A DNA stretch of 45,743 bases, taken from the UHGV virus genome UHGV-0129770; one strand, given 5' to 3'. The DNA is from a virus. Positions 4,051 to 45,743 of the stretch are shown here, piece after piece. Below the pieces are notes generated by a model. That model saw nothing but the letters and a program-made list of their open reading frames with translations. It was not told the origin of the DNA and made no database searches. The first letter of the stretch is position 1, and each line of letters starts with the position of its first letter. Made by a program: the position numbers and the translations under genes.

Positions 4051-5046
4051 TCAGTTATTGAACGTGATCACTCCGCGCTCGATGGCGAAGTCAAAAAGCT
4101 GGTTAGCGGCTACGTAAAGGCGTATGCCATGTGCTTTTTCCCATGCCCGAACATCGTTTTCTGCGCTTCTGGCGCAGTCATCGCAAAGAGGAACAGCCCA
4201 GCGGTCGTGTTCGTTTAACGAGCGGGCGCGGTACATGAACGGGTGGTTAACTTTGCCACCGCATCCGATGCACGGACGAGAAACCACAAACCGGAGATAA
4301 GCCGGGCTTTTACCGAGGACCGCTTTTGGTCGGCGCATATAAAGCAGGCCGGAATCCTCATCTACAGACAGGTTGACGATCTGCTCTGCGGTTATGTCCA
4401 CCAGCTCGCGGGTACTGTGCTCCCAGGTGATATCTGATTCTTTCAGCGTACCGGTAGGGATTTCAGTTTTTGGCTGACAAAATGCAATGCGACCAGCTTC
4501 ATCAGGCAGTTCGTCTTTAAGATTCCGGCGAATGGCCCAAAAGGTGAGTTCAACCATGCTCAGATCGCGATCTGGCGGAAGTTTTAACTCGCTGGCAGCC
4601 CAGTTCATAATCCAGTTGGCGCGATTCCGTGACAGTTGGTCTTCCAGCTTGCCGTATCCCTTCATCATGTATTCCGCATCATGCTTCCAGCACAGGCGAA
4701 CGGCAGAACCGTTATAGAAATGGGTGGTTAGCTGGTGGCTGCAATCGCGCTTATCATGCGCCTGGCAATCGTGAATGTTGGTGCTAACCCAGTGAACGAG
4801 AGAATCCTCACCACCTAACGCGTTAAATACACGCTCACTTTGAAAAAAGGGTGCCAGTGACTGGTTGGCAACCAGTGAATAATTCAGGTCAACGACACCA
4901 TCAGGGGTGTTTTCAGCCTGTTCACGCGGCAATGGGGATATAAGAAAACGGCGTCCTGCGCCGATGTAATTGCTGGTGGGCTTATCTACAGGAAAGACAG
5001 CCACACCAGTTTCATTTACGACATATGGGGTGATTATTGCACTCAT
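4051..5046 (-). CDS. hypothetical protein with C-terminal Cys cluster (CIGCGG ... CDDC)
   Basis: ORF track; ATG at 5046..5044 checked in sequence; operator-like inverted repeat 45-70 nt upstream. Confidence 0.45.
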   Translation of the reverse strand: MSAIITPYVVNETGVAVFPVDKPTSNYIGAGRRFLISPLPREQAENTPDGVVDLNYSLVANQSLAPFFQSERVFNALGGEDSLVHWVSTNIHDCQAHDKRDCSHQLTTHFYNGSAVRLCWKHDAEYMMKGYGKLEDQLSRNRANWIMNWAASELKLPPDRDLSMVELTFWAIRRNLKDELPDEAGRIAFCQPKTEIPTGTLKESDITWEHSTRELVDITAEQIVNLSVDEDSGLLYMRRPKAVLGKSPAYLRFVVSRPCIGCGGKVNHPFMYRARSLNEHDRWAVPLCDDCARSAENDVRAWEKAHGIRLYVAANQLFDFAIERGVITFNN

Positions 5047-5089
5047 AATGCATACCGACTCTGTTTTGTTCCGATCGGTAAAATAATAT

Positions 5090-5117
5090 GTTAGAAAACT
5101 AAAATCAATGTTCTAAC
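5090..5117. promoter_or_regulatory. operator-like inverted repeat GTTAGA-N16-TCTAAC (site A)
   Basis: GTTAGA at 5090..5095, TCTAAC at 5112..5117, 16-nt spacer; same architecture at 10343 and 22242. Confidence 0.45.
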
Positions 5118-5143
5118 GTGATTTGAGTGCGTAAATGATTTGA

Positions 5144-5836
5144 TCAGACTTTAAGCTGCCCTCCCTTCACCTGCATTAGCGTCAGATTTCCGCAAAAAAC
5201 CGCGCCCGTGTCTATGTAGTGCTGATTCCAGTATGCTTTTGGTCTTCGTACCGGTGTGTGCCCAAAGATAAAGCGATCTGCGCCTGTGATTTCTCCACCA
5301 ATGCCATCTATCGAATCACCGACGCGACTGCGCGACCAGACAACATCAAAAAACGACACATCCTTACCGAACTGGTACTCTCCACCTGGATAGTCGGCAT
5401 GGGCTATAACGATAGTTTCATGCCCGGTGTTCAACTCAATGATATATGGCAGACGCTTTACCAGCTCCACCAGCGCCTTGGCTAATATTTCCTGATCAGT
5501 GCCCAGCATGAAGAACCATTGTCCGCCATTAATTAGCCAGTTATTCACGTTGCCATCAGGACTTAACGCATCAAGCATCAACCGCTCATGGTTCCCCATT
5601 ACTGCCCTGAACCAGGGCATCTGCAATAGTTCCAGACATTCGACATTTTCAGTACCGCGATCGATAAGGTCGCCAACCGATATCAGTAAATCCTGCGCCG
5701 GGTCAAAATCCACACGATGGAGTTCGGACATCAGTCTGGTGTAGCAACCATGCAGATCACCAACAACCCATATGTTTCTGTAGCCAGAACCATCAATACG
5801 GCTATATAAATTCACTTCATGCATAGTCTGGATCAT
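5144..5836 (-). CDS. serine/threonine protein phosphatase, lambda-type metallophosphoesterase
   Basis: Motifs GDLHG, GDLIDRG and GNHE; start set to ATG 5836..5834, which overlaps (ATGA) the stop of the upstream ORF. Confidence 0.85.
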
Positions 5837-22283: not shown

Positions 22284-23189
22284 ATGAGATCAGTCGCTTT
22301 CAAAAATATCTTCATCTATCGTCTTTCACGCGAAGTTAGCTGGGATACTGCAGAAGTAAATGCAGCCCTTAGCAAGTTTGTGTTTACCCCATGCGGTTCT
22401 CAGGATATGGCTAAAGCTGGTTGGACCCCCGTTCTTGGCGACAACCTCACCCATGAATACCAGGGTTTTCTTCTGATGCAGCATAAACGAGAGGAAAAAA
22501 TCCTACCTTCTCAAGTACTCAAAGAAGAGTTACAGAAAAAAATCCTGAAACTTGAAGAAGAGCAAGACAGAAAGCTGAAGAAGACCGAAAAAGATTCGCT
22601 GAAGGATGAAGTGCTTCACTCTCTTCTTCCTCGCGCTTTCACGAGAAAATCAGTAGCTAAAATCCTGATAGACCGAAGCAATCATCTGGTTTTTGTCGAG
22701 GCCAGCAGTGCTAAAAAAGCAGAGGATCAGCTGGCTTTGTTACGGAAATCGCTTGGCAGCTTGCCCGTTGTCCCCTTCTCTCCGAAAGACCCATTAGAAC
22801 TGACCATCACTGGCTGGATTAAAAATGGCTTCCCGAACGGTTTCCGTGCCGGTGAGGAAGCGACCTTAAAAGCATTGCTTGATGATGGCGGCGCGGTCCG
22901 CTGCAAAAAAGTGGACCTGCTATCCGACGAGATCATGAGTCATATAGAAGCTGGTAAGGTTGCAACCACAGTTGCGGTTAACTGGCAAGACCGTGCATTT
23001 TTCAGACTGAATGACGATATGAGTATCAAGGCTTTGTCGTTCAGCGACGAATTGTACGACCAGAACGACGATATTGATCGAGAGGATGTTGCGCAACGAT
23101 TTGACGCTGACTTTATCCTGTTTACTGCTGAATTATCCGCGATGTTCACTTCGCTAGTGGAGGCCGTTGGTGGTGAAGCAGAACGTTAA
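22284..23189 (+). CDS. rdgC: recombination-associated protein RdgC homolog
   Basis: Long colinear matches to E. coli RdgC as I recall it: [87 protein letters not shown]. Confidence 0.85.
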
Positions 23190-25461
23190 CCTTAGATATG
23201 GTTCAGTTTGCAGTGGAATTGAAGCAGCGAGCATTGCCTGGGAACCGTTGGGTATGCGTCCGGCGTGGTTTGCTGAAATCGAGCCTTTTCCATCTGCCGT
23301 TCTTGCGCACCGCTGGCCCCATGTCGCCAACCTTGGCGATATGACAAAACTTGCCAAAAAAGTCCTGGCTGGGGAAATCGAATCCCCTGATGTGCTCGTC
23401 GGGGGAACACCTTGTCAGGCATTCAGTATCGCTGGATTACGTGGTGGGCTTGATGATGAGCGTGGCGCGCTAACTTTAAAGTATGTGGAGCTTGCAAATG
23501 CAATTGACGACAAACGGGCTGAGTCATTTCTCAAACCAGCCGTTATCGTCTGGGAAAATGTCCCAGGAGTCTTGTCATCGGCAGATAACGCCTTCGGATG
23601 TTTCCTTGCCGGATTGGCTGGAGAAGATGCGCCATTCGAACCAGGTGCTCGACCTGAATCACGAAAAAGTAACGCGTTCTGGCGGTGGGATGTCAAAACC
23701 AGTTGCCATGCTCCAAAGTGGCCGCAGTGTGGTTGTATTTATGGACCGCAGCGAAAAGTGGCCTGGAGAATCCTTGATGCCCAATACTTCGGAGTGGCAC
23801 AACGACGCCGACGCGTGTTTGTTGTCGCAAGTGCTCGAACAGACCTCGATCCCGCAACGATACTTTTTGAGTTCGAAGGCGTGCGCCGGAATATTGCGCC
23901 GAGCCGAAAAAAGAAGGAAATCGCTTCCGCCATTATTGCAAATGGCGCTGCAATCAGTGGCGAAAGCCTAAATCCATGCCTACACGCTGACATGCCCCCC
24001 GGTATGAAATCGACGAAAGCCGTAAACGCTTTCAGGATGGCGGCATTTGGGGAATATATTGACGATGAAACCGCATCGACAGTAAAGGCAAGAGACTTTA
24101 AAGATGCCACTGACCTTGCCGTTTTTAGCAGCACAGGAGCAGGTTTTTGGTCAGAGGGGCATGGTACATTGCGGGCGCGTGAGCAAGAAAGCCATGAGCA
24201 TCTTGTTACATTAGCTTTTCCTGAGCGTATGAGCGGTACACAACATGCTGCAACTAAGAATACTTCACCATCTCTAATGGCTCAAAATCCAACAGCCGTT
24301 TGCTATGAAGTAAGAAACGCAGAAGTAGCTGTCCGCCGTCTTACCCCTGTCGAATGTGAAAGGCTGCAAGGTTTTCCTGATGGGCATACGTTGATCCCTA
24401 CGGAAAAGCGTAAAACAATTTCCTCAGATGAACTGGCATACCTTCGCAATCACTATCCAGATTTAAGCGAAGAAGAAGCCGCGATGCTCGCTGCTGACGG
24501 GCCGCGTTACAAAGCGATTGGCAACAGCATGGCAGTTCCTGTTATGCAATGGATTGGGTGTCGCATTCTTGCGACTGTGGAAGCTAAACAGCCAAAAACA
24601 ATAAATACCATTACCTACACAAGAAAACTCCGGACTCCGGATGAATATGAACGTCCGATCTTCAAATGGGTAGGCGGTAAATTCTCAGAGTTGCCTACAG
24701 TGCTTGAGCATCTACCACACGGCAAGCGGTTAATAGAACCGTTCGTTGGTGGCGGTTCTGTATTTACGAATGCAGGATTTCGCCACAACCTGCTTAATGA
24801 TATTAACGGTGACCTGATTAACTTCTATCAGACATTGCAGCGAGAAGGACATTCGCTCGTCACGCTGTCATATAGTTTTTTCCAAAATTACAACAACGCT
24901 GACGCTTACCTCGAAGTGCGTGAGGCATTTAACAGAGGAAAGTATGACCAGCTACATCATGCTGCCGCCTTTTTGTACCTTAATCGGCACTGTTTTAATG
25001 GCGTAACGCGGTACAACCAAAATGGCGAGTTCAACGTGGGGTATGGCAAATACAAAGCGCCCTACTTCCCACATGCAGAGATGGAGGCATTTTTGGCTGA
25101 TGACGTACTCAAAAACACGTCCTTTGTATCAGGTGACTTTGCTGGCGTCATCGAGGCGGCTGGTGAAGGCGATGTGATTTTTTGCGATCCGCCGTATGAA
25201 CCGCTGCCGGATACAGAAGGGTTTACCAGTTATTCAGGAAATAGCTTCCGTTTCGACGAACAGAAACGGCTGGTATCTCTATTGGTGGAAGCCCACCAGC
25301 GCGGCGCTAAGGTAGTGATTACAAATAGTGGTGCGCCAAACATCCGTGAACTATATGAAGGAAACGGGTTTAAAGTACATCATATGGCAGCCAGACGGTC
25401 GGTTTCCTGCAAGGCGTCAACACGTGTAGTTGCTAACGATATAATTGCAATAATGAAGTAA
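23167..25461 (+). CDS. bifunctional DNA methyltransferase (N-terminal C5-cytosine domain, C-terminal Dam-like N6-adenine domain)
   Basis: C5 motifs [27 protein letters not shown]; Dam-like [21 protein letters not shown]; no adjacent restriction endonuclease. Confidence 0.8.
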
Positions 25462-25509: not shown

Positions 25510-27171
25510 TTAACCTAACTTCGCCCAAGTATCACGCAGCCCAACGGTGCGGTTAAATACCGGTTTTTCCGCCGTGGAATGGCGGCTGTCGAGGCAGAAA
25601 TAACCTTCACGCTCAAACTGGAATGCTTTACCCGCTACCGCTTCTTTCAGCGACGGTTCAGCAAAGCCCTGTTTGATCACCAGCGATTCCGGGTTAATCA
25701 CCGACAGGAAATCATCCGCAGCACCTGGGTTAGGCACGCTGAACAGACGGTCATACAAACGGATTTCAACCGGCAGCGCATGTGCCGCGCTCACCCAGTG
25801 AATAACACCTTTGACTTTACGACCATCTGCCGGATCTTTGCTTAAGGTGTCGGCGTCATAAGTACAGAAGATGGTGGTGATATTGCCTTCGGCATCTTTC
25901 TCCACGCGTTCTGCCTTAATGACGTAAGCATTACGCAGACGCACTTCTTTACCCAGCACCAGACGTTTGTACTGCTTGTTAGCTTCTTCGCGGAAATCGG
26001 CGCGATCGATCCAAATCTCACCGCTAAACGGCACCTGACGGCTGCCCATTTCCGGTTTGTTCGGATGGTTCGGCATGGTAACCATTTCGCCTTCGCCCTG
26101 ATAGTTTTCGATAACCAGTTTCACCGGATCGATAACCGCCATTGCGCGCGGCGCATTTTCGTTGAGATCTTCACGGATGCAGGATTCCAGCGACGCCATC
26201 TCAATGGTGTTGTCCTGCTTGGTCACGCCGATGCGTTTGCAGAACTCACGAATAGAAGCCGCAGTGTAACCACGACGACGCAGACCGGAAATGGTCGGCA
26301 TACGCGGGTCATCCCAGCCTTCAACGTGCTTGTCGGTCACCAGCAGGTTCAGCTTACGCTTGGACATCACAGTGTATTCCAGATTCAGGCGCGAGAATTC
26401 GTACTGGCGCGGGTGAACAGGAATGGTGATGTTGTCCAGCACCCAGTCGTACAGGCGACGGTTGTCCTGGAACTCAAGCGTACACAGAGAGTGCGTAATA
26501 CCTTCCAGCGCATCGCTGATGCAGTGGGTGAAGTCGTACATCGGGTAGATGCACCACTTGTTGCCAGTCTGGTGGTGTTCAGCAAATTTAATGCGGTACA
26601 GCACCGGATCGCGCATCACGATAAACGGCGAAGCCATGTCGATTTTCGCACGCAGGCAGGCTTTACCTTCTTCAAAACCACCGGCACGCATTTTTTCGAA
26701 CAGCGCCAGGTTCTCTTCAACGCTGCGGTCGCGGTACGGGCTGTTTTTACCCGGTTGCGTCAGGGTGCCGCGATATTCGCGGATCTGTTCCGGCGTCAGT
26801 TCATCAACGTACGCCAGGCCTTTATTGATCAGTTCGATCGCATAGGCGTGGAGCTGATCAAAATAATCGGAGGAGTAACGGACGTTACCAGACCAGTGAA
26901 AACCTAACCACTCTACGTCGTTTTTGATCGACTCAACATACTCGATATCTTCTTTTACCGGGTTAGTGTCGTCGAAACGCAGGTTGCACTGGCCTTTATA
27001 GTCCTGGGCGATCCCGAAGTTCAGGCAGATAGATTTCGCATGGCCAATATGCAGATAGCCATTCGGCTCCGGCGGGAAACGGGTGTGTACTGTGGTGTGC
27101 TTACCACTGGCCAGATCTTCATCGATGATCTGACGAATAAAGTTAGTCGGGCGGGCTTCTGCCTCACTCAT
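25510..27171 (-). CDS. glnS: glutaminyl-tRNA synthetase
   Basis: 553 aa; class I HIGH (PNGYLHIGH) and KMSKS-type (VMSKR) motifs; matches enterobacterial GlnS almost residue for residue from memory; C-terminus here ends ...TWAKLG. Confidence 0.9.
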
Positions 27172-33013: not shown

Positions 33014-34711
33014 GTGAATAAAAACATTCAGCCAGCTCGTGATCGCGAGCGCGAGATTATGAATCGGGCGGCAAGCGTCATGGCTATGACCGTCGATCCG
33101 ACCACCGATGCAGCAGGCAACATGATTGCTGACCAGGCAGTAATGATGGAAAACCTGGATAAAGCAATCCAGAAAGTGCCTATGTTTGAAGGCGTAAATC
33201 CAGAGGTCGCTCGTCAGATCACTGGTGGGTGGGCTATGTCTCTGCATGAGTATAAACGTCAACATGGTCATTACCCGGCAAGTGACATCCTGGCGAACGC
33301 ACACATGGCTCTTGAACGCCTAATGACTGAATGTGCCAGTGATACCCACGAAGGCACGGGTAAGGCAATGTTTGAGTCTGTCGCGCAATCAATGCGTAGC
33401 TCTGACGGCGTAATGAAAGTTGCTCAATATGCTGCTCTAATTCTGCCTGCCTCTCTGGGCGCTGCTACCAGTGATGCCTGTACTTTTGTTCCTTGTGATC
33501 GTGACGAGTCAAATATTTATGAACTGGTCAACGTAGCAGGCACAAAATTCGGCACCTTCAAACAAGGTGACGAACTGAATATGCAGTCAGCTGGTGTTTA
33601 TTCTCAAATGAAGCGCCTGTATACCCTTTCCACTAAAGGGGATGGCAGCACCAAAACCTTCCAGTTCGACATCCAAAATTTTGAGGGACAATCCTGCCCG
33701 CTTCGCGCTGGTTATAACAAACTGCTGATCAACCGCAAACCGTCCAAAGTTGACGACGGCGATGGCAACCTTTATTTCAATGCTAAAGACAGCAAAGGTA
33801 AAGCTTTCTCAGCGACTGCCAAAGTTGCCTATGACACTGGTGTCATTGACATTACATTTACCCAGGCTCCGCCAGAAGGTACTGAAATTGCTGTTCAGGT
33901 CGAAATTAACATCGAGCGCAATCCAAGCCTGATTCCTGTGATCAACCAGGCTATGCGTAAGTACGAAGTTCGTCCGTCCCAGTACGTAATTGCTTCCGAA
34001 CACACGGTAATGTCCGCATCCGATTTAAGCCGTGAGCACGGCCTTGAATTAGCGGCACTTCAGTTCTCCGCGATGCGTAACTGGATCTCCCATGAAACCG
34101 ACATCATGCGTCTGCGCACCCTGGTATTCCATACCGTTTATGGTCGTGAATTTGATGTGGCTCTGCCGGAAGCTCAAAACTATGAGTCCTGGGTCGGCCT
34201 CCTGCGTCACGTAGTAAACGCTCTGTCTCAAGAAATGGCAAATCGTACCCTGACAACGGGTATTCGTGGCGGCTTTGCTGGTGGTGACGCCGCGAACTTC
34301 CTGCGCTCTCTGCCTCCACAGCACTTCCAGATCGCACCAGGTTACGTTCAGTCGCCGTATGTACAGTACATCGGCACCCTGTTTGGCACGATTCGTATTT
34401 ACGAAGTGCCGCAACCTGTCTGTGAGCAATTCCAGGCACAGGGATATGACTTCGGGCTGGATGACATCTTCTTCTATGGGCGTGGCGAAGGCATCGGTAA
34501 AGCCGGTCTGATTGCTGGTGATGCAGTCCCAGCAATCCCTTACGTGCACGAAACCAATCCGTCTCTCGTTAACCGTACCACTCTCTGGGGCAGTGCCATC
34601 AACGAAGTACATCCTCGCAACGGTGAAAACTACTTCACCCGCCTGCGTCTGACTCGCGCCAAAGAAGGTGCTATCGACATGCTGACAGGCAAGGTTAACG
34701 AAAAAAAGTGA
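33014..34711 (+). CDS. large virion structural protein, possibly major capsid
   Basis: 565 aa, GTG start, heads the structural block; function inferred from position and size only. Confidence 0.4.
   Translation: MNKNIQPARDREREIMNRAASVMAMTVDPTTDAAGNMIADQAVMMENLDKAIQKVPMFEGVNPEVARQITGGWAMSLHEYKRQHGHYPASDILANAHMALERLMTECASDTHEGTGKAMFESVAQSMRSSDGVMKVAQYAALILPASLGAATSDACTFVPCDRDESNIYELVNVAGTKFGTFKQGDELNMQSAGVYSQMKRLYTLSTKGDGSTKTFQFDIQNFEGQSCPLRAGYNKLLINRKPSKVDDGDGNLYFNAKDSKGKAFSATAKVAYDTGVIDITFTQAPPEGTEIAVQVEINIERNPSLIPVINQAMRKYEVRPSQYVIASEHTVMSASDLSREHGLELAALQFSAMRNWISHETDIMRLRTLVFHTVYGREFDVALPEAQNYESWVGLLRHVVNALSQEMANRTLTTGIRGGFAGGDAANFLRSLPPQHFQIAPGYVQSPYVQYIGTLFGTIRIYEVPQPVCEQFQAQGYDFGLDDIFFYGRGEGIGKAGLIAGDAVPAIPYVHETNPSLVNRTTLWGSAINEVHPRNGENYFTRLRLTRAKEGAIDMLTGKVNEKK
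34702..34708 (+). other. A_AAA_AAG -1 slippery heptamer at the stop codon of the 33014..34711 gene
   Basis: Frame checked: GAA AAA AAG TGA; the -1 frame continues 35 codons (VMVANVSVSPTSLDVDEGETIAANTSKAQKKTKQK) to TAA at 34813..34815. Confidence 0.45.
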
Positions 34712-35204: not shown

Positions 35205-36863
35205 ATGAATAAGATTAGTTTTTCGGTAGGGCAGGCAGCTGGCGTTGCTGTAATGTCAGTAAATGCTGACGCTACCCTCACCAATACCAGCGGTGGCGCA
35301 TCCGTCTTTGCTGGGCTTGTAATATCGCGTCGTGGCGCACCGGGTAAGGTACTGAAAGTTGACGATACGACTTATCAAAGCGTATTAGGTTCACCGATTC
35401 ACCCTCGCCAGGGCGCGGCATTTGAACCATATCGCCACGTGGAGCGTGCAGTAAAAGGCGGCTCTGGATATGTCGTTCGAGTTTGCGCTAAAGACATGAA
35501 GGTGCCGGGTATTTCTGTTTCCGTTGTGGGCAAAGCAAAAGCGGCAAAGGCGAGCAAAGAACTTTCCGTTGAACCTACTGAAACCACAGTAAATCCAGGT
35601 GACACATTAAGCGTTGGTGTTGCTTCAACTGCAACGACTCAATCAGTGACCTTCACACCCAAAGAGACGCCCCAGATTAAAGGTGGAGAGAAGGCATTAT
35701 TCTTCATCAAAGATGGTGATGCATCTCAAAATCGCACGTTATCACTAACTCGCGATGATGAAGAAAGCGAACTCTTTACGCTGACGCTGAAAGAAAAACA
35801 AACCGATGGGTCCATTGAGGTGCTGGAAAGCCACCAAGTGTCTTTCAATCCAGAAGGCACCAACGACATGGGCCAACCAGCATGGATTCCGACACTGCTT
35901 GAAAGCCAGTCCACTCGCATTGGTGCCGTACTGGCAGATAATGCAGAAGCATCCGCTGCTCAACTCATTTTTGAGGATGTAGCTTTTGAAGGTGGTACTG
36001 ATGGAAATCTGTCCGAAATTAACGCTGCAGACTATCTGGAAGCATTAAAGGTTCTCGAAGCTTCAGAGGTTAATTACACCGCATTGCTGTCATTGGGTTG
36101 TTATGACGCATCCGCCTTAGCCGCAATCAAAAAGCTGGCTGAAGATGTTCGCGTAGACATGTTCTATGACCTGAAGGGCAACCAGACACCTGAAAACGCT
36201 ATTTCAGAAGCGAAAAGCCATAGTTTTGGCGGCTCACATCAACCAAGCCGTTACTACTTCCCGCTCTCCTGCCGAGATACTTTCACTGGAATGAATGTCG
36301 TCTATGGCATTAGCTGCGACGCATTCGTAGCGAAGGCAAAAGGAGTGGCGCTGGTACCGGATGTTGGTGGTTGGCATTACGCACCGGCAGGTATATCACG
36401 CGCGATTATTGATCGACAGAACATTGCCCGAATTCCAAATATCGGTGCAGTTGATCGTGAGGCGTTCGTTCTTGCGCGCATTAATCCAGTTTCAGTTGCT
36501 GCTGACGGGTCCGTTTACATTGACGACTCTTTAACAACTTACAGCAAAAACAACTATCTGCGATTCCAGCATGTGTCTTCCTTGATGAACGCCATCGCCA
36601 GAGATTTCTATGAAGTAGCTCAGGCGATTAAGCACGAACCGGATGGCATTACCAAAGAAACGCTAATGAAAGCAATGACTGAATTGCTTGACCGTTACGT
36701 TGCAGCCGGTGCGCTGGTTACTCCACGTGACAAGTCCCAGGGTGAAGATCCATATGTTGTTCAGGTTGTCCAAAAGGACATCGATCTGTGGGAAGTGTCC
36801 TGGTCTGTTTGTCCGACCGGTACAGCTCGCCGAATCGTCGGTAAGCCAATTCTGATGCGCTGA
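35205..36863 (+). CDS. tail sheath-like protein with an inserted Ig-like segment
   Basis: GTDGN...DYLEALKVLE...ALLSLGCYD and C-terminal RINP...YIDD...RFQHV pattern resemble contractile sheath proteins; a tube-like gene lies downstream. Confidence 0.5.
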   Translation: MNKISFSVGQAAGVAVMSVNADATLTNTSGGASVFAGLVISRRGAPGKVLKVDDTTYQSVLGSPIHPRQGAAFEPYRHVERAVKGGSGYVVRVCAKDMKVPGISVSVVGKAKAAKASKELSVEPTETTVNPGDTLSVGVASTATTQSVTFTPKETPQIKGGEKALFFIKDGDASQNRTLSLTRDDEESELFTLTLKEKQTDGSIEVLESHQVSFNPEGTNDMGQPAWIPTLLESQSTRIGAVLADNAEASAAQLIFEDVAFEGGTDGNLSEINAADYLEALKVLEASEVNYTALLSLGCYDASALAAIKKLAEDVRVDMFYDLKGNQTPENAISEAKSHSFGGSHQPSRYYFPLSCRDTFTGMNVVYGISCDAFVAKAKGVALVPDVGGWHYAPAGISRAIIDRQNIARIPNIGAVDREAFVLARINPVSVAADGSVYIDDSLTTYSKNNYLRFQHVSSLMNAIARDFYEVAQAIKHEPDGITKETLMKAMTELLDRYVAAGALVTPRDKSQGEDPYVVQVVQKDIDLWEVSWSVCPTGTARRIVGKPILMR

Positions 36864-36900
36864 TTTATAACCCCCGCTAAATGATGCGGGGGAGAGAGGT

Positions 36901-37641
36901 TTGAATATGAAAAATTATACTGCTGATCCTTTTATGCGTGCGATTTTCGGTTCTGGCTGCTTTGAAAGCGGTGATAAATCCACGCAGGACAATAATGATA
37001 ACGCCATGCTGGAAAGCGCAGGACAGAAAGGAAAGGACACTCAACCAAAGCCCAAAGACGACATTGAAACCGCGATGATGGAAGCGGTTGAATCCCGTGC
37101 ACAAGGTGATATGCGCAGCCTGGCAGCTTCCATGATTGCTGGTTGGGTTGAAGATGGTGATCCGGAGGCTGACTCATTTGATGCATTAGCAATCACTATG
37201 GCTGGCCTGGCTGATATCGATGAAGACACCGATTTCACCGATGAGCAAATCGATGCTTATAACGATGCTCTCGCAGCTCTTGCTGATGCAGCTGTTGCGC
37301 TTGGCGCTGATCAGGACGATGTAACCGAAATGATCGACGATGAAGATGACTCAGCTGCCGAACGTGTTTATGACGCTCTTTCCGAAAGCGACACCGACAT
37401 GATGGAAACAGCTATTGCCATTTACACCGTTGCTGGTGGTGATAGCGCAATGCTGGAAGCGGTACGTAAAAAAGTGGTTCGTGATGGCAAGGTTACCATC
37501 ATCCGTAAACGCCCGCGTCCTCGCCGCATGACGTCATTGCAAAAACAGGCGCTGAAAAAAGCACGCCGCAAAGCACATACATCCGTAGCGAATATCAACC
37601 GCAAAAAATCAATGCGCATTCGCAAAAAACGCGGTTTGTAA
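36901..37641 (+). CDS. acidic virion-associated protein with a basic C-terminal tail
   Basis: Asp/Glu-rich body, then RKRPRPRRMTSLQKQALKKARRKAH...RKKRGL. Confidence 0.4.
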   Translation: MNMKNYTADPFMRAIFGSGCFESGDKSTQDNNDNAMLESAGQKGKDTQPKPKDDIETAMMEAVESRAQGDMRSLAASMIAGWVEDGDPEADSFDALAITMAGLADIDEDTDFTDEQIDAYNDALAALADAAVALGADQDDVTEMIDDEDDSAAERVYDALSESDTDMMETAIAIYTVAGGDSAMLEAVRKKVVRDGKVTIIRKRPRPRRMTSLQKQALKKARRKAHTSVANINRKKSMRIRKKRGL

Positions 37642-37690
37642 GTGACATAGGCCGTCTGCAAAGGTGGCCTCTACCTGGGAGAAATAGCGT

Positions 37691-38281
37691 TTGATTTGCG
37701 GCGCGATAATGCCTGACGGAATAAGTCCGTTAATGAAGGTTTATATCCTCTCTTCAGAGGATATGGTCGTCGGTTATATCGGTGAAGGATCTACCGCAGA
37801 ACTGTCATCAATGTGGCAATCACCATTTGAAAACCAGTCAGTAGGAGGTTTGCTTGGCGGTATTAGCGCTGCGGCTGGCTCTCTTGCAGATACGCTTCAG
37901 ACCGCAACCGGCGTAACAACAAAAACCCTCTTCAACTCAATGCTTGTTTGGGAAGGTCAGCAACCGCCTGAATTTAATCTGGTAATTGATTTCATGGCGA
38001 CAACGAACGCGCAACTTGAAGTGAACGCAGCCATTACAGCATTGCTGAAGATGGAATCGCCGGAACTGAACAATGTAGCGCCATTCGGTCGTCGCCCGGA
38101 GACAGTAACGTTAAACATAGGTAGGAACATAGCCCTTACCGACGTTGTTATCAAAAGCGTGAGTTACCAACTGGACGCCCCGCGCACACCGGAAGGCTAT
38201 TTCACTCATAACACGGTAACCCTGCAATGCAGCGGTAACACATCGATCAACCGTAGCAATATCTCATCTGTTTTTGTGTAG
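37691..38281 (+). CDS. hypothetical tail or baseplate-associated protein (start uncertain)
   Basis: ORF track; lies between the sheath-like and tube-like genes. Confidence 0.4.
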   Translation: MICGAIMPDGISPLMKVYILSSEDMVVGYIGEGSTAELSSMWQSPFENQSVGGLLGGISAAAGSLADTLQTATGVTTKTLFNSMLVWEGQQPPEFNLVIDFMATTNAQLEVNAAITALLKMESPELNNVAPFGRRPETVTLNIGRNIALTDVVIKSVSYQLDAPRTPEGYFTHNTVTLQCSGNTSINRSNISSVFV

Positions 38282-38289
38282 GAGTATTT

Positions 38290-38781
38290 ATGTCCGGTTT
38301 TGCAAATACAAAAGCCGATATGGCCTTTCTAAAATCCCGGTTTAATAAAAACCTGGCTGCAGGCGAAAAACTTATTGGTTCTGAATATTGGATGACCATT
38401 AAGGGTTACGAACATCTGTCTGTACTAGTTCGTACAGCTCAGTTACCAGAAATGACACGTGAAGATGTGGAGGATTACGCCCCTGGTGGCATGAAATTCA
38501 ACCAGCACGGACCATTACGCAACTCTGGTGAATTTCAGGTTACATGCGCGGAAACTATCGAAGGCGCAGTTCTCGCCGCTGTAAAACAGATGGTATACGG
38601 AAAAGAATATCTGGAAATTACCTTACAGGCGGCGGCTGAATCGAATAGCGGTAACCATAAAGGTCTGATCCGCACATATTCTCATTGCAAAGTGTATTCC
38701 GACGCCGTGGACTTCTCATCCGAAGACGTAACAGCGGTCGTTAAGCCTTCCCTGCGTATTGTTTACAACTGGGTAGAGTGA
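38290..38781 (+). CDS. tail tube-like protein
   Basis: 163 aa directly after the sheath block; C-terminus ...LRIVYNWVE resembles the T4 gp19 C-terminus (...LALDYWE) from memory. Confidence 0.45.
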   Translation: MSGFANTKADMAFLKSRFNKNLAAGEKLIGSEYWMTIKGYEHLSVLVRTAQLPEMTREDVEDYAPGGMKFNQHGPLRNSGEFQVTCAETIEGAVLAAVKQMVYGKEYLEITLQAAAESNSGNHKGLIRTYSHCKVYSDAVDFSSEDVTAVVKPSLRIVYNWVE

Positions 38782-38833
38782 TCTCTTTCCCGCCCTTGTG
38801 GCGGGAATTCCTTGTATTTGAGTTGTAGGTACG

Positions 38834-39385
38834 ATGACACCAACCGAATTATTAGAAAGCGTTAAAGCACGATTTAATCCACTGCTTGTGCGTGAAGAAG
38901 AAACGCTGAAAGCCTTCCTGATCAAAGCTCTGACCACGTATCAGGACAGGGCAGGGGTAGTGAAAACGTTAAAACTTGAAAAAGCTGGTGGTACTGCAAT
39001 CCCGTTGCCAGAAGATTATCTCTCTCTGGTTCATGTTACTGACAACAACGGCTTGTTGGTCTATTCGGATGAATTATCCGGATTTATTGAATTAGAGCTA
39101 ACAGGTTCAGAACGCTGGCCTTTTCGAATGCTGTATCTGGTTAATCTACGCGACAGAGAGCTGGATGAATGGCAAGTGCCTCCTGCAATCATTGGAATGT
39201 TGGAGGAATATCTGGAGGCACTTATCAATGTAAGAAATGTCGCCCGGCAGCGTAGAGCGTCCATCGACGGGAAATTTGACTACTCCGATCTGCCCGATGA
39301 AGCCACACTATATGCCCGCGTGCAGGAGATTGAGGAAAAAATGTCCTCAAACCGGGCCATTATTCCGGGGGCTACCATTTTTTAA
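38834..39385 (+). CDS. hypothetical phage structural/assembly protein
   Basis: ORF track; structural-operon context. Confidence 0.4.
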   Translation: MTPTELLESVKARFNPLLVREEETLKAFLIKALTTYQDRAGVVKTLKLEKAGGTAIPLPEDYLSLVHVTDNNGLLVYSDELSGFIELELTGSERWPFRMLYLVNLRDRELDEWQVPPAIIGMLEEYLEALINVRNVARQRRASIDGKFDYSDLPDEATLYARVQEIEEKMSSNRAIIPGATIF

Positions 39386-39400
39386 CGCTGGAGGCGCAGA

Positions 39401-40108
39401 GTGAGTATTTTCAGCATCGTTGGTAGAACGTTGACCACCGCATTGTCATTTAACACGAAATCATTCACCAGCAACCTCATTAGCGACATTCTTGATAAAG
39501 CCATATCAGGCGGCGGGGTAAGCGGGAATTACAGTAGCGATATTGCCTACGGGAAAAATATTGTTGCTGCCGCTATGCGTATCCGTTACGCCCAGGGGTG
39601 GCAGTGGACCGTTGAAGTGGATGGCCTGAACGGCTTCGATATGTTCGTGAAGGATATCACCTACAGCAGTGGAAACATTGAGACAGAAAGCAAGGTGATC
39701 GGCAGCGTAGAGTTCAGCAAGCCAACCTATGTTAGCGCCGGACCGGTCACTATGACCGTGAGGGATACCGAAGATGGCAAGATCATGGACTGGTTCAAAG
39801 AGCGTCGTTCTCGTGTAACAAATCCTGATGGAACAATAAACCTTCCTCCTGAATATCTGATGAAAATCCGTGTCTACCGGGTGACTCAGGACGGCGGAAA
39901 AGAACTGGAAGAAGAAATGCGCGTATTTCCTACTCAACTTGGGGAAATCACTCGCTCACGTGATCAGGTGTCAGAGTTCTTGTCATACCCAATCACTTTC
40001 CAGAAATACACATCCGCAGGCTCAGGTGTTTCTGCTTTGGTCAACGGTGCCGCTGGCATGGCTACAAGTGCGTTAAAGGGGGCTGTGAGTGGAGTGATCA
40101 AATTCTGA
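39401..40108 (+). CDS. hypothetical phage structural protein
   Basis: ORF track; GGAGG SD; last gene before the replicon module. Confidence 0.4.
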   Translation: MSIFSIVGRTLTTALSFNTKSFTSNLISDILDKAISGGGVSGNYSSDIAYGKNIVAAAMRIRYAQGWQWTVEVDGLNGFDMFVKDITYSSGNIETESKVIGSVEFSKPTYVSAGPVTMTVRDTEDGKIMDWFKERRSRVTNPDGTINLPPEYLMKIRVYRVTQDGGKELEEEMRVFPTQLGEITRSRDQVSEFLSYPITFQKYTSAGSGVSALVNGAAGMATSALKGAVSGVIKF

Positions 40109-40195: not shown

Positions 40196-40494
40196 TTTTG
40201 AGGGCATTTTTTACATCATTAATCCATCTGTAATGAAGGCATTCTTTACACATTTCAATAATATCAATCAGTTAACACAGTGAATGATAATAAAAAAGCG
40301 CAATAAGAATGCACGATACGCACGATATTGGTTGAGGGTGATTTTTACATAATCCTTACATATCAATATGTTATATAAAAACACAACTTGCCAATAACAA
40401 GATACATGCAATTAAGATGTAAAAATTGCCCTCAATTGCCGATCGTTAAGGGCAAATTCTACACCTTGAGAGGGGTGTAAAAATTGCCCTTAAG
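40196..40494. repeat. iteron-like repeats downstream of the rep gene, in both orientations
   Basis: TGAGGGCA at 40198, TGAGGGTG at 40333, inverted TTGCCCTCA at 40426, TTAAGGGCAA at 40446, inverted TTGCCCTTAA at 40484 overlapping the rep stop. Confidence 0.6.
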
Positions 40495-41245
40495 ACTGCT
40501 GATAGGTAAATTTTATCCTGGTAACTTTGCCGCCTTCCGTCACCTCTGAGAAGACTATTTTCATTTTTGTATTTTTTTCAATCTCTGCTACAGCCTTCGT
40601 TAAAAAACTTCTCTTAAATTCGGCATACCGCTGATAGCTTTTTGGTAACCCATAACGCTCCCGCATCCATTCGACGCCAAGTATGGCAAAGCCGCTTCCA
40701 TCATCCTTCCTGTACTGGCATAAGGACTCATAAAGCCGCATAGAATAAGGATTTGTAAGGCGAGATACTTCGGTAAAATTCAGCCTTGTGAATCTCTTAT
40801 CAAGCAGAGTAAAAAACGGCATGAGATATGGATTAAGATGAATAATGTAAGTCCCGCGCCGTGGTGAATAGGCATCCTTAATCATCCAAGGATAAGACTC
40901 ATAACTGTCTTCTGATTCGGTCGATTCATCAGGGTTATATATCGTAACTTTCTTCTCGCTAAGACCTGAAATGGCCTTACGAATATCCTTGCTGGCTTCA
41001 GCAGAGGGCAAATTATACATCTCTGCATATTCGTTGACCGTCAACTCACAGGCACCTGAACCAAGAACGCCATCCTTAGAAGCATAGCGAAGTCTTCCCA
41101 CCACAATAAACAACAGTCGCTTTTGGTCGCGAGTCAGGTGATAAGCAGCCTCCGTGATCTCATTGGCTTGTGCCAAACTACGACTAATAGGTGTCGCTGA
41201 CTCAATCAGGCTGACGGCTTTTGCTGTTAATTCCGCTCTGTTCAT
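40490..41245 (-). CDS. RepE/RepA-type (Rep_3 family) plasmid replication initiator
   Basis: ITEAAYHLTRDQKRLLFIVV, AEASKDIRKA, YESYPWMIKDAYSPRRGTYIIHLNPYLMPFF, NPYSMRLYESLCQYRKDDGSG are colinear with F-plasmid RepE as I recall it; start set to ATG 41245 (251 aa) rather than TTG 41278. Confidence 0.8.
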   Translation of the reverse strand: MNRAELTAKAVSLIESATPISRSLAQANEITEAAYHLTRDQKRLLFIVVGRLRYASKDGVLGSGACELTVNEYAEMYNLPSAEASKDIRKAISGLSEKKVTIYNPDESTESEDSYESYPWMIKDAYSPRRGTYIIHLNPYLMPFFTLLDKRFTRLNFTEVSRLTNPYSMRLYESLCQYRKDDGSGFAILGVEWMRERYGLPKSYQRYAEFKRSFLTKAVAEIEKNTKMKIVFSEVTEGGKVTRIKFTYQQS

Positions 41246-41268
41246 AACCCTGTGTGATCCTTCAAATG

Positions 41269-41388
41269 GTGAGGGCAATTTTTACATCACTTTGAGGGCA
41301 ATTACTACACCTTTTGAGGGCAAATCTTACACCTTCTGAGGGCAAATCTTACACCGATCGTATCTAATTGAGGGCAAATCTTACACCA
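41269..41388. repeat. array of five direct iterons upstream of rep
   Basis: TGAGGGCAA(A/T)TCTTACACC-like units at 41270, 41293, 41315, 41337 and 41369, about 22-bp period. Confidence 0.75.
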
Positions 41389-41530
41389 GACTCCTCTACA
41401 GCCCGCGCCACTACTGGCTCCAGCGACGCCTAAAAAGGATCTAAAAAGGATTAAAAATGGAAAAAGGTTTATAAAAATACTCTGTGTATATGTGAGTAGC
41501 GTCACTTAAGGTGTAAAAATCACCCTCAAT
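41389..41530. promoter_or_regulatory. putative origin region: AT-rich stretch bounded by an inverted iteron
   Basis: AT-rich run taaaaaggatctaaaaaggattaaaaatggaaaaaggtttataaaaatac at 41431..41480; inverted iteron GGTGTAAAAATCACCCTCAAT at 41510..41530. Confidence 0.45.
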
Positions 41531-41633: not shown

Positions 41634-42455
41634 TTGAACATTCCAAAATTTCCATTGCCTTCCCGTCCTGAGACAGAAATTCAGTTCCACGCCCCTACCG
41701 TGAAGGATGCGCTGAAATATTCTGACCTGAACCCGGCAGAAGATGAGGCAACTACTACAGAGTACCTTAACTCTATGCAGGATGGTGAAATTAACGACAG
41801 TGCTAACTGGACAGTTCAGGATCGCAGAACTGCTCTTTGGTGGATATTTGTTAATTCGCGCCCCGATGCAGTAATGACCTACTCCTATGAGTGCAGTCAC
41901 TGCGGTAATACGCATCATGCAGATATTAACCTGAGCGACCTGGCCCAAACAGTAGAAATACTCACTGTACCTCCTTACGTGAAAACCAACGTACCAGTAA
42001 ATGGAGTACCAACTGACTGGATACTTAAACCATTAACCGGGAAAGGCGCGGAACTCCTTGAACGAATGCGAGCTTCACTTCCTGATATGAAAAGCCCCGA
42101 ATACAGTGCTGGCGTGGCACGGATGCGAATTGCTGAACTCGCTTTATGCACGGCGCTTGAAGACGATCCGGAGGACTTCACTCAGGCCGCTAACCGACGC
42201 TTTGACATCATTGAAAGCATGGCGCTTGAAACTGAATTTACTCCGCTTGTGGCTCGCATACAGCTTATGCAAAAAGACCTACGCCACGGCCTGAAAATGT
42301 CTATTGAGAGAGGCACAAGCCGACTGATCCTGCCTCCGCAACATTGCAAAAACGCTAAGGAGGGTGCAGATGTGACAACCACACTGTACGTCCCCTTTCT
42401 CAATAGAGAGTTTATCCCATCAATTAGATCTGAATGGATGGCTAACCATTATTAA
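41634..42455 (+). CDS. hypothetical protein (TTG start)
   Basis: ORF track; GGAGGA SD 4 nt before TTG; contains CSHCGNTHH. Confidence 0.45.
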   Translation: MNIPKFPLPSRPETEIQFHAPTVKDALKYSDLNPAEDEATTTEYLNSMQDGEINDSANWTVQDRRTALWWIFVNSRPDAVMTYSYECSHCGNTHHADINLSDLAQTVEILTVPPYVKTNVPVNGVPTDWILKPLTGKGAELLERMRASLPDMKSPEYSAGVARMRIAELALCTALEDDPEDFTQAANRRFDIIESMALETEFTPLVARIQLMQKDLRHGLKMSIERGTSRLILPPQHCKNAKEGADVTTTLYVPFLNREFIPSIRSEWMANHY

Positions 42456-42469
42456 CAACCTGACTCTAT

Positions 42470-45400
42470 ATGGATATCAGCCCGTTAGCGACGTTGAAAA
42501 ATTACCGCAATGGCGAGCACTCCATATGTCAAAAGCCCTGGAAGAAAAATACAAAGCTCAAGCTGGGAAACGTTGATCGCGCTGGTAAAAGAGAGGTTAT
42601 TTTGAAAGAGAATAAAGACCGTATCGCAATAATTGACGCTATTCAGGAGGCGAGCACAAACGAACTTAAAGCTCTTGCTGAGGTTAAAGACGCCATTCTT
42701 TCTGGGGCAAGCACCATAACTCAACAGGACGAAAGGCAAGGCAGAGTTAGCAACAGACTATCACGCAGGCGTAAAGACTACGAGCAAAGTACATCTGATA
42801 GCGTTAGAGATGTCCAAACTAACCCATATAAAAAACGTCTCCCTGCTAAAAAGGAAAGGGCACCGATAAACCAAACCGTGGACCGCTCTATCGTTGCAAC
42901 GAACACACCAGAAAGTGTTCGCTCCGTGCAATCACGTCAGACCATCCGAAAACCGGACGGTTTTATACCGGTAGCTGCTAATTCAGCCCCTCTTGAACCA
43001 CAATCCCCCCAAAGTCTAAAAGGCCCGCTGCGGGATAGTAGTGGACGTTTTGTATCCCAAAAAAGCAATGAGGATGTAGCCAAAAAAAAAGAATTGCAGA
43101 ACGCACGTAAAGCCGACGCAAAATTACAAGCTGGCTTTCTCAGAAAGCTAGGTTCCATTATGGGGGTAGATGGCAATCAGTCTTCCAGTGAAGAGTCTTT
43201 AACAAATGCAGCTGGTGTCGGTGCTGGTGGGCCGTTATGGATGGCGGCTCGTGGCATGTACGACATAACTAAAGAGATCACAGGTAAAGCAGAATCTCTT
43301 AAAGAATGGGTAGAAAAGGGAAAAAAAGAAACATCAACCTCGAAAGCGATATCACCAGTAATTACTTATCCGGCGGCGGTGAATTCTCAAAAAGCAACAT
43401 CTGCAAAAGCGTTCAATAACGCTGTTGAGACAAAATCCGCACAAGCAGTAGAAGAGCAAACCAAAATTCTTCAGACCAATGACAACAAAATAATTGATGG
43501 TCTGGAAAATGTCTCCGACGAAGTAGTTAAGCTACGCAAATCAGTATCTTCTGGGAATAAGTTCGGCTTAAGTGATCTCTGGAGAAATCGAGCAAGCAGA
43601 AGAAATAAAATCAATATTGGCGATCAGGCTGGTAAAAATAAACGGAACAAACCGAAAAGGAAAGGTCGCAATCTGGGGAAAAAAGCCCTTTCTGTTGGTG
43701 AAAAAGCCGCTGCCGGAACCGCTGCTGCTGGAGCTGGTGCCGGAGCTGCAAAGACTGTTAAAACAAAGGTTAGTAAAGCCAAAGACATCAGCACCACAAG
43801 CGACGCATCTAAGGGTATTGCTAAAGAAACAAAAAACACAGCAAAGGCAGTTAAGCCAGCAGGTGTTGTTGCCGAAGAGGCCACAATTAAAACAGGTGAA
43901 ACTGTTGCAAAGAAAAAAACCGAATCCGTAGCCCTCAAAAGTGCTGCAAAAATAGGTGTTAAATCAGCTGCTTCTACAGCTGCAAGAGCTATCCCGATCA
44001 TCGGATCGCTAGCTATGGCGGGATATGACGCTATAGATGGTTACACTGATACAGATGCGCAAAAGGCAGCCTTTGGATTAAGTGACGATGATGCTGTATC
44101 CGAACAGCAAAAAACGGCTTACGCAACAGCTAATGTGCTCGATATGGGGGGCTTGGTGTCGGGCGCAACGAACTTGATAGGGAAAGGAATTTCTGCGCTA
44201 GGATTTGAAAGAGCAGGTGAAAAACTTCAGAATTTTGATACCGGAGATATTGCTCGTGGTGTTAACGGCGCGGTAGATATCACCAAATCTGTTTTTGGTA
44301 GCCTTAAGGATACATTTTTATCCACTGACGAAAACACGAAACAAGTAAAAAAAGCTGTTGAAGACGGCACCAAAAAAACTGTCGATGCGATTCATTCTCT
44401 AGGTGAACAATTACAAGGTGGGCGTAATGGCGAGGATGGAGTTGGTGAGCACGGGTATACTTCTCCAACTGAATTTAGTGCACCTGCCAACAACACCATT
44501 GCAGCGGATCTGAATATTGGCGGCAGCAACGCTAAAAACCGCAATTACCGAAATAATAATCTCGGCAATCTTGTTTTTGCCAACCAGGAAGGGGCGACGC
44601 TGGAATCGCCAAATGCAAAAGGTGAACAACGTTTTGCGCGATTTAACACACCTGAAGAAGGGATCAGGGCACTGGCAAACCAGGTTTCCAGCTATTACAA
44701 CGGCACCAGTGCCGCAGCGGGATATCAGAAGTTACAGACGGTATCCAGCATCATTTCAAAATGGGCACCGCCAAATGAGAACAATACTAACCAATATATT
44801 GATAACGTCAGTAAATATCTTGGTGTATCGCCTAATGAAAAAATAGATGTCAGCAAACCAGAGGTTATGACGCAATTAGTTCGTGCAATTGCGACGAAAG
44901 AAGGCGGAAATCCGGCAGTTAATAATGAGTTCATTAAGAACGCACTTGGAGCATTTAACACAAACACTGGTCGATGGGAGGGGCAATTCTCTGATGAAAC
45001 ATTGGCGCGGATTAATAAAATTCAGAAAGAAAATGGTGGTCAGCTAATTGCCCGCGATTCGCAATATAGTGTTGGTCGCAAGGTAAAATATGCTAATGGA
45101 AAATCTCCAGCTCAACCAGTTTTGAATGCCGTTCCGACAGCAACACAACAGCCAATTGAGGTTGCACAACATGCCCAGGCAGTCAAAAAGCCACAAAAAA
45201 CAGGTAACCAACCACAACCGATTAATCCAGAGAACGCTGATGTTAATACCGGCTCTCCATCGAGTTTGCTTGAGCGGTTAATCGCAATAAATGAAAGCGG
45301 AATCAGTGGTGCAAGTAATTTATTTGGCGGCGCGGCTACCAGCCTTGCTGGAACAAGTCTGGACCTGGTAAAGGATTTTGCGTTGGCTACTTCGTTTGGT

Positions 45401-45743
45401 TCTATATCTTCGCTTTCCGAAAAAGCGAAAGGAATGGATCAGGCTCTTACTGAAAAGATATCCGGCTTAACCGGTAAATCTTTTGGATTTAAAAAAGCTT
45501 CTCAAGTGGCTGATATCGCAACAGCCATACAACAAAAACGCACTGTTAATCACGATACAGAAATCATTGATCTACTTCCGGGAGATCAAGTATCCCCTTC
45601 TACTCCGAAAACTCCACAGCAGGAGCAGGCTCTGGCAATCAGCCAGGCTATGGCGGGCTTTTCGTCTGCAGCGCCAGCACCGAAAACCCCACAGCAGGAG
45701 CAGGCTCTGGCAATCAGCCAGGCTATGGCGGGCTTTTCGTCTG
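42470..45743 (+). CDS. very large virion protein, partial (tape-measure- or injection-protein-like); continues past window end
   Basis: Own translation finds no stop in this frame from ATG 42470 to the window end (over 1090 codons); Lys/Ala-rich low-complexity stretches; tandem repeats at the 3' end; not in ORF track because it has no stop. Confidence 0.55.
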   Translation, partial: MDISPLATLKNYRNGEHSICQKPWKKNTKLKLGNVDRAGKREVILKENKDRIAIIDAIQEASTNELKALAEVKDAILSGASTITQQDERQGRVSNRLSRRRKDYEQSTSDSVRDVQTNPYKKRLPAKKERAPINQTVDRSIVATNTPESVRSVQSRQTIRKPDGFIPVAANSAPLEPQSPQSLKGPLRDSSGRFVSQKSNEDVAKKKELQNARKADAKLQAGFLRKLGSIMGVDGNQSSSEESLTNAAGVGAGGPLWMAARGMYDITKEITGKAESLKEWVEKGKKETSTSKAISPVITYPAAVNSQKATSAKAFNNAVETKSAQAVEEQTKILQTNDNKIIDGLENVSDEVVKLRKSVSSGNKFGLSDLWRNRASRRNKINIGDQAGKNKRNKPKRKGRNLGKKALSVGEKAAAGTAAAGAGAGAAKTVKTKVSKAKDISTTSDASKGIAKETKNTAKAVKPAGVVAEEATIKTGETVAKKKTESVALKSAAKIGVKSAASTAARAIPIIGSLAMAGYDAIDGYTDTDAQKAAFGLSDDDAVSEQQKTAYATANVLDMGGLVSGATNLIGKGISALGFERAGEKLQNFDTGDIARGVNGAVDITKSVFGSLKDTFLSTDENTKQVKKAVEDGTKKTVDAIHSLGEQLQGGRNGEDGVGEHGYTSPTEFSAPANNTIAADLNIGGSNAKNRNYRNNNLGNLVFANQEGATLESPNAKGEQRFARFNTPEEGIRALANQVSSYYNGTSAAAGYQKLQTVSSIISKWAPPNENNTNQYIDNVSKYLGVSPNEKIDVSKPEVMTQLVRAIATKEGGNPAVNNEFIKNALGAFNTNTGRWEGQFSDETLARINKIQKENGGQLIARDSQYSVGRKVKYANGKSPAQPVLNAVPTATQQPIEVAQHAQAVKKPQKTGNQPQPINPENADVNTGSPSSLLERLIAINESGISGASNLFGGAATSLAGTSLDLVKDFALATSFGSISSLSEKAKGMDQALTEKISGLTGKSFGFKKASQVADIATAIQQKRTVNHDTEIIDLLPGDQVSPSTPKTPQQEQALAISQAMAGFSSAAPAPKTPQQEQALAISQAMAGFSS
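45606..45743 (+). repeat. in-frame 75-bp tandem repeat inside the large virion gene
   Basis: Unit 45606..45680 repeats from 45681 with one mismatch (t45613 vs c45688); encodes PKTPQQEQALAISQAMAGFSSAAPA. Confidence 0.8.

Follow-up and report, generated by a model that had tools for sequence, protein, structure and literature searches.

Tape-measure proteins are the textbook molecular ruler. In-frame deletions and duplications in lambda gpH, T4 gp29, the TP901-1 TMP, and the TM4 TMP shift tail length proportionally, and the length changes made in the TM4 TMP reportedly included the removal of a non-helical lytic motif. To our knowledge, tail length has responded to an in-frame length change in each tape measure for which the experiment was made (lambda, T4, TP901-1, and TM4), and nearly all of the ruler evidence is drawn from laboratory mutants of a small number of phages, mainly ones with non-contractile tails. 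Tandem repeats and polyX tracts contribute to tape-measure length and thereby, in the cases tested, to the length of the tail (PMC13585406, PMC8616913). The repeats of the siphovirus TMPs are degenerate and have an 11-residue period with Trp/Phe markers.

The tail of phage P1 measures 2450 Å overall, and its trunk consists of 53 rings with a rise of ~40 Å and has a 40 Å lumen (PMC10304247). Proteomic and bioinformatic data led to the assignment of the P1 protein Sit as the tape measure, and Sit was detected in virions by LC-MS/MS (PMC9024508). The cryo-EM study of P1 likewise takes Sit for the tape measure; there, the density in the lumen and the baseplate, which is lost on contraction, was assigned to Sit though unresolved (PMC12810830). 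Proteins of the Sit type leave the virion before the DNA and provide the sole tail-associated muralytic activity (PMC9024508, PMC12810830). The gene product of phage D6 is annotated as "tail injection transglycosylase, similar to P1 gene sit" (D6 gp087), and the annotation of the P1 sit record itself reads "putative tail ruler". Two Salmonella D6-like plasmids were described as differing "in the sit sequence" (PMC6799933).

The DNA analyzed here (the window) is a stretch of 45,743 nucleotides of the virus genome UHGV-0129770 and represents a D6-like phage-plasmid, that is, a plasmid prophage of E. coli. The gene at its end resembles P1 sit and D6 gp087 in position, in coding for a large virion protein, and in having an internal muralytic domain, and is 93% identical to the D6 gene at the nucleotide level over the first 3 kb. 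Unlike both of them, it contains a tandem repeat, and its predicted lytic domain is not of the P1 SLT type. We put the probability that this repeat is a real in-frame variable-number tandem repeat (VNTR) of the sit-like gene at about 95%. We see in it a hypervariable minisatellite of recent origin, with a unit of 75 bp (25 codons), that is confined to one D6-like sub-lineage.

The array is similar to the siphovirus TMP repeats in being an internal repetition in a protein of the tail-length-determining kind. In contrast to them, its unit has 25 residues, is nearly identical at the DNA level, polymorphic, and Pro-rich, lies C-terminally to a lytic domain, and belongs to a contractile tail; instead of the ~11-residue period with conserved aromatics that characterizes the classical TMP repeats, it has a period of 25 and a dispensable Phe. 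The VNTRs of bacterial surface proteins also consist of near-perfect repeats of tens of base pairs and share the signs of unequal exchange, the conserved edges, the interspersed unit variants, and the in-frame steps, but here the gene encodes a virion-internal protein of a plasmid prophage, with no on/off switching and no logic of immune evasion. While the lambda gpH, T4 gp29, TP901-1, and TM4 mutants are laboratory constructs, the present variants form a natural allelic series that results from the instability of the locus and is known from sequence alone. In-frame variation of repeat length in a tape-measure gene is thus of a known kind, and the unusual feature is the hypervariability at the population level, possibly also on a laboratory timescale. 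No description of the sit repeat polymorphism was found in the literature searched, which included a large phage-plasmid survey and had the D6 genome paper outside its scope.

The Repeat Lies in a sit-like Gene

The sit-like gene (tape measure/structural injection transglycosylase) occupies the last part of the window, where its 5' 3274 nt are present on the plus strand (42470..45743). Residues 47-1060 of the encoded protein match positions 1-1023 of the profile phrog_7182, "tail injection transglycosylase", with E=0, and the last 3.3 kb of the window are 93% (93.4%) identical at the nucleotide level to the gene of Escherichia phage D6. In the BLASTP analysis, P1 Sit aligned collinearly in two places, namely the N-terminal half, with 28% identity over 455 aa (E=7e-35), and, weakly, the extreme C-terminus (E=0.003). 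No Pfam family was found at E <= 0.1 for the part of the protein encoded in the window, and D6 was the sole match when the C-terminal 554 aa were compared with phages by tblastn.

A peptidoglycan-hydrolase domain (endolysin-like, "NNxGN" type) is predicted at residues ~688-829 (44531..44956, plus strand). Its sequence matches in the PDB are the endolysin 7q47_A (E=1.4e-15) and Gp29, 9vvp_L (E=3.5e-13), and residues 689-828 match the endolysin family phrog_873. The repeat array begins ~220 residues C-terminally to this predicted lytic domain. By similarity, position in the operon, and the internal predicted hydrolase domain, the protein belongs to the P1 Sit/D6 gp087 family, and the earlier assignment of the repeat to a large virion protein gene is thus borne out by the P1 sit homology, the phrog_7182 match, and the annotation of D6.

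The same gene also contains an Ala/Gly low-complexity tract (AAAGTAAAGAGAGAA) at 43721-43749, which is coded by a 6/12-bp repeat, GCTGCTGCCGGA. This tract was considered as a second variable site and rejected, since its length was constant in the loci examined.

The neighborhood of the gene is that of a tail operon. Directly upstream, a pmgB-like gene is found on the plus strand (41634..42455; phrog_1854, E=4e-135); in P1, PmgB is a proposed tape-measure chaperone (PMC9024508). A P1-type contractile-tail module on the same strand (35205..40108), whose size the tape measure would set, comprises the sheath, gp21-like, PmgG-like, tube (BplB-like), PmgC-like, and Tub-like genes, as judged from PHROG matches and the D6 annotation. 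The PHROG scan of the window showed that the sit-like gene, with pmgB adjoining it upstream, is the sole structural ORF of the tail module to exceed 1000 codons, and revealed no other structural gene of tape-measure size in the window. According to the annotations, the gene order pmgB - sit - pmgA - bplA, followed by gene 16, R, and S, is common to D6, the plasmids, and P1.

The 75-bp Array at the End of the Window

Tandem Repeats Finder (TRF) reported a 75-bp period at 45605-45743 of the window with 1.9 copies, 98% matches, 0 indels, and a score of 271. Base-by-base comparison of the two copies showed a difference at one of the 64 comparable bases, namely a T/C change at unit position 9, which is synonymous (ACT/ACC). 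As an identity of 63/64 at a fixed offset cannot be accounted for by chance, the repeat itself is not in doubt. The similarity of the copies begins abruptly at 45605, which is the start of a codon (CCG = Pro), and the first 1.85 units of the array (45605..45743, plus strand) are present before it is cut by the window end. The unit is translated as PKTPQQEQALAISQAMAGFSSAAPA in the same frame as an ORF of at least 1093 codons; the ORF holding the repeat follows a stop near 42461, has an ATG at 42470, and is open through the last base of the window.

The first-pass annotation of the window had described a near-perfect in-frame 75-bp tandem repeat, and both TRF and the direct comparison agree with this, down to the one mismatch. 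The start it gave, 45606, was off by one base: the array is real and begins at 45605.

The continuation of the array was found in the plasmid pCUVET20-PYO4.3 (NZ_CP115379.1), which matches the last 3000 bases of the window exactly. The suggestion that the array may run past the window therefore proved right: in this plasmid it consists of 6 units, or 450 bp (4862-5311 of the locus L002), five of them full and the last one degenerate, ending in ...AMAGAAPVVTS. The entire sit-like gene of pCUVET20-PYO4.3 has 4245 nt and encodes 1414 aa, with 234 codons after the array. The region of ~220 residues behind the array is C-terminal and conserved with D6. At the site of the array, D6 sit has no repeat and carries an unrelated stretch of ~30 residues; no tandem repeat was seen in P1 sit.

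Copy Number in Related Plasmids

The length of the array was determined in 58 complete plasmids as the span between two unique flanks joined as one query. It amounted to 1-12 or 17 units in 55 repeat-bearing records and to 14 units in one further record, while 3 of the 58 plasmids had the D6-type allele without the array (-12 nt). Exact multiples of 75 were found in 51 of the 55 repeat-bearing arrays; the exceptions were arrays of 305 nt and 149 nt and two arrays deviating by +/-9 nt. The gene length minus the array was 3795 nt in three repeat-bearing full-length genes and 3783 nt in D6, and the protein length in the four full-length genes examined equals 1264 + 25n aa, where n is the number of units. 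Thus, head-to-tail near-identical units, near-identical genomes that differ in copy number, and steps of whole units, which together characterize a VNTR, were all observed. The range of 1 to 17 units across the complete plasmids and the formula for protein length also bear out two expectations of the first-pass annotation, namely that the repeat number varies between isolates and that the repeats alter the length of the protein.

A two-unit query matched 58 plasmids, of which 56 are listed under Escherichia (one of them E. albertii), 2 under Shigella, and 0 under Salmonella. The unit is also present in five D6-like IMG/VR contigs; it was absent from 185,579 species-representative genomes. The abundant Salmonella protein examined (P0026) is of the D6 type and has no repeat. 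From this distribution, the repeat is private to one sub-lineage of D6-like elements.

Since repeats are prone to collapse or expansion during assembly, the array or its copy number might in principle be an assembly artefact. Many database proteins are "partial" at contig ends, so that short-read assemblies do break here, and the few off-frame arrays (305, 149, and 76-nt spacings) resemble sequencing errors. However, the repeat occurs in 58 complete plasmids and 5 viral contigs, 51 of the 55 arrays are in-frame multiples of the unit, and replicate assemblies agree with each other (4/4, 17/17, 9/9, 3/3/3, and 8/8/8 units). The order of the unit variants is also structured, with conserved edges, and the first seven units of one allele (EFGGIHGLM, see below) are found again in an independently obtained isolate that has the same plasmid size but differs in country and host. 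We therefore find an artefactual origin of the array scarcely credible, although the copy numbers in individual records can be wrong.

The database copies of the sit-like protein are mostly "partial" E. coli or Salmonella sequences that end at contig edges, in clusters of at most 107 members; evidently, short-read assemblies of D6-like plasmids are routinely interrupted at the array. In addition, the array explains why isolates that are otherwise identical have plasmids whose sizes differ by multiples of 75 bp. Its size could be misread as instability or could serve as a fine typing marker.

The off-frame arrays belong to L023 (CP058777.1), NZ_OR257475.1, and CP043746.1, where the deviations are a 76-nt unit spacing, +5 nt, and -1 nt. 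The sit-like gene is unannotated in CP058777.1 and NZ_OR257475.1 and is only a "hypothetical protein" in CP043746.1. These arrays are probably homopolymer-type sequencing errors, or possibly true pseudogenes.

A different irregularity was seen in NZ_CP195333.1 (L004), a 120-kb "linear" plasmid record in which the match to sit starts at nt 2569. In its positions 1-2568, portal and head-processing genes replace the first ~840 nt of sit and pmgB/repA, leaving a 5'-truncated CDS of 1346 aa. This 5' replacement is either a rearrangement or a misassembly.

Gain and Loss of Units

The internal structure of the arrays was compared using unit maps, in which each distinct 75-nt variant is given one letter. 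The source plasmid of the window has the map ABBBBC (6 units) and p13ZX28-90 the map ABBD (4 units). Longer arrays were found in strain 11 from cattle in China (EFGHGIHGJIKGLM, 14 units), in p92_MLI108-1 from Mali (NHHGHGIHHGIHIHHGO, 17 units), in an isolate from Ghana (NHGHGIHHGO, 10 units), and in JS316 from Germany (NGfGfGfGgM, 10 units). The first and last units at the edges are conserved and the interiors are reshuffled, often with a two-unit periodicity. Conserved edges together with reshuffled interiors are the pattern of unequal exchange or slippage; through such events between near-identical units, the array gains and loses units in frame, and the protein changes in steps of 25 residues.

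Among the records with an equal flank-match score (3556 bits), arrays of 5, 9, 10, 11, 14, and 17 units were present; the identity of the flanks was verified on the sequences for a subset of them (the Ec-050 series and L004). The Ec-050 isolates come from the serial subculture of a single clone, which acquired only 0-9 SNVs in 20 passages (PMC11039899). Their arrays read EFGIHGKHGLM (11 units) at T0, EFGGIHGLM (9 units) in T5-MAC, and EFGLM (5 units) in both T5-ESBL and T20-MAC. Maps cover these four plasmids, and the array of T20-ESBL, 375 bp long, corresponds to 5 units by its length. The 1.5-kb flanks are identical in T0, T5-MAC, and T5-ESBL, and the plasmid sizes within the series differ by exactly 150, 300, and 450 bp.

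In an independent ST167 isolate, obtained from a cat in Italy, the array can be read as EFGGIHG before the record breaks off at unit 8, and the plasmid of 90,296 bp has the size of that of T5-MAC. As the first seven of the nine units of EFGGIHGLM thus recur in an independent ST167 isolate with the same plasmid size, the nine-unit allele is genuine rather than a product of the assembler.

Two explanations of the Ec-050 series are open: a stock that already contained several array lengths, or changes of the array in the course of a few passages. On either account, the array is much less stable than all other parts of the genome. Judging by these sequences, the copy number shifts much faster than point mutations accumulate, and it probably changes even during the laboratory subculture of a lysogen.

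Composition and Predicted Structure of the Unit

In its composition, the array is foreign to its surroundings: its GC content is 61.8%, compared with 44-47% in the flanks, and its GC3 is 0.60 versus 0.36 in the rest of the gene. Of the six reading frames, five run through the unit without a stop. A donor of the unit was not detected in the window or the D6 locus by tblastn and blastn-short, or among the species-representative genomes mentioned above (185,579).

The unit is rich in Pro, Ala, Ser, and Gln. Its amino acid variation comprises Q/L, L/I, S/N, A/E, G/S, A/V, and F/S replacements plus a few synonymous changes; the single Phe is replaced by Ser in some alleles (e.g., P0001). From its sequence, the unit seems to consist of a short, amphipathic core with a tendency to form a helix (QQEQALAISQAMAGF), joined by an Ala/Pro-rich extended linker (SSAAPAPKTP). 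The AF2 single-sequence model, which is of low confidence (mean pLDDT 41), shows long helices flanking the repeat block and no regular structure inside it.

Three other identities of the 75-bp repeat were considered and rejected. It is not an iteron array, because the iterons of the plasmid are the 22-bp repeats at 41270-41355; it is not a CRISPR-like array, as there are no spacers; and the in-frame nature of all steps argues against an on/off phase-variation tract.

Implications for Tail Length

A Sit-type protein would lie in the 40-Å lumen of the tail tube and set the length to which the tube and sheath polymerize. The repeat block separates the predicted lytic domain from the C-terminal ~220 aa, a conserved domain that presumably docks in the baseplate hub. 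In P1, ~2120 Å spanned by a Sit of 1140 aa corresponds to at least 1.86 Å per residue, as we computed. At such a value, the whole P1 Sit chain is needed, with a part of it more extended than an alpha-helix. By contrast, Gonzales et al. (2022) assumed a P1 tail of 120 nm and argued that the N-terminal ~750 helical residues of Sit suffice as the ruler (PMC9024508). The 53 rings and 2450 Å seen by cryo-EM (PMC10304247) are in conflict with the 120-nm tail behind this argument.

By arithmetic only, one 25-aa unit equals 37.5 Å at 1.5 Å per residue or 46.5 Å at the P1 scaling, i.e., 0.94-1.16 ring. Because the engineered length changes in the tape measures of lambda, T4, TP901-1, and TM4 alter tail length, each added unit would be expected to lengthen the tail by about one 40-Å ring. 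We regard a step of approximately one extra ring per unit as an even bet. If so, the lineage would carry contractile tails whose lengths span about 15-19 rings (60-75 nm).

Several observations speak against this ruler reading. A disordered spacer rich in Pro, Ala, Ser, and Gln could compact without altering the measured length. The array is C-terminal to the lytic domain, and the ruler was placed in the N-terminal ~750 residues of Sit (PMC9024508). Even the aromatic residue of the unit can be replaced (F to S). Moreover, the range of 1-17 units in near-identical phages and the contraction in the plasmid state fit neutrality at least as well.

The main alternative is that the array is a neutral flexible spacer, a tolerated, disordered Ala/Pro/Gln-rich linker whose copy number drifts by recombination for want of any constraint, while the remainder of the protein determines an unchanging tail length. 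We consider this plausible, though we lean against it. It agrees with the composition of the unit, with the lack of predicted regular structure (in the low-confidence model), with the broad distribution of copy numbers without a sharp mode, and with the free substitution of unit residues (F/S, A/E, S/N, and L/I). The changes also occurred during subculture in the prophage state, when the virion function is not under selection, and no unit is needed for the function of D6 or of the Salmonella protein examined. Set against this, P1 Sit has no spare length (1140 aa for 53 rings of 40 Å), and extra residues in a 40-Å lumen need axial space. The in-frame changes in the tested tape measures did alter tail length, and frameshifted arrays are rare among complete plasmids and were left unannotated, which indicates that the reading frame is kept.

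The location of the block between the lytic domain and the C-terminal domain suggests yet another role, in which the array acts after ejection. As an extensible tether, it would tune the periplasmic reach of the lytic part or of a C-terminal membrane-active part and adapt the phage to different host envelopes, and it could do so in combination with either a ruler or a spacer. Ala/Pro-rich segments are semi-rigid spacers in other proteins, which counts in favor of this role, as do the ejection of Sit-type proteins ahead of the DNA and their muralytic activity (PMC9024508, PMC12810830). However, copy number shows no correlation with host or source: one flank haplotype occurs with varied copy numbers in E. 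coli from humans, cattle, and cats and in Shigella, and the number changes inside one host clone. We hold a tuning of post-ejection reach to be very unlikely.

The step of about one ring per unit may also be extended to an adjustable ruler, in which unequal exchange in the prophage would continuously yield phages whose already ultra-long tails differ by whole rings, over a span of up to ~16-19 rings (60-75 nm), and are selected, e.g., for the depth of the host envelope or capsule. The array would then be a contingency locus for virion geometry, which we consider unlikely. If true, it would provide a natural series for studying how a partly non-helical tape measure converts residues to rings in a myovirus.

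Whichever reading holds, the alleles form a natural series with 1 to 17 units of 25 residues on one backbone, and culture collections hold several of the strains. Should tail length follow the number of units, the series would represent natural and rapid evolution of tail length and would give a residues-per-ring calibration for the "ultra-long" tails of P1 and D6. If tail length is constant, a tape measure can hold hundreds of non-measuring residues.

Other Features of the Phage-Plasmid

An ORF of the RepB/RepA initiator family is encoded on the minus strand at 40490-41278. Its start is abutted by 22-bp direct repeats (TGAGGGCAAATCTTACACCTT, 3.9 copies, 41270-41355), and an 11-bp repeat (2.6 copies) lies near them at 41430-41457. 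Together, the 22-bp and 11-bp repeats look like the iterons and origin of the plasmid prophage, placed between tub and pmgB as in D6.

The window further encodes, near its middle, a fused DNA methyltransferase of 764 aa (23167-25461, plus strand; phrog_116/phrog_56) and two large conserved phage proteins with no assigned function, one on the minus strand at 25510-27171 (phrog_12136) and the other on the plus strand at 33014-34711 (phrog_1014).
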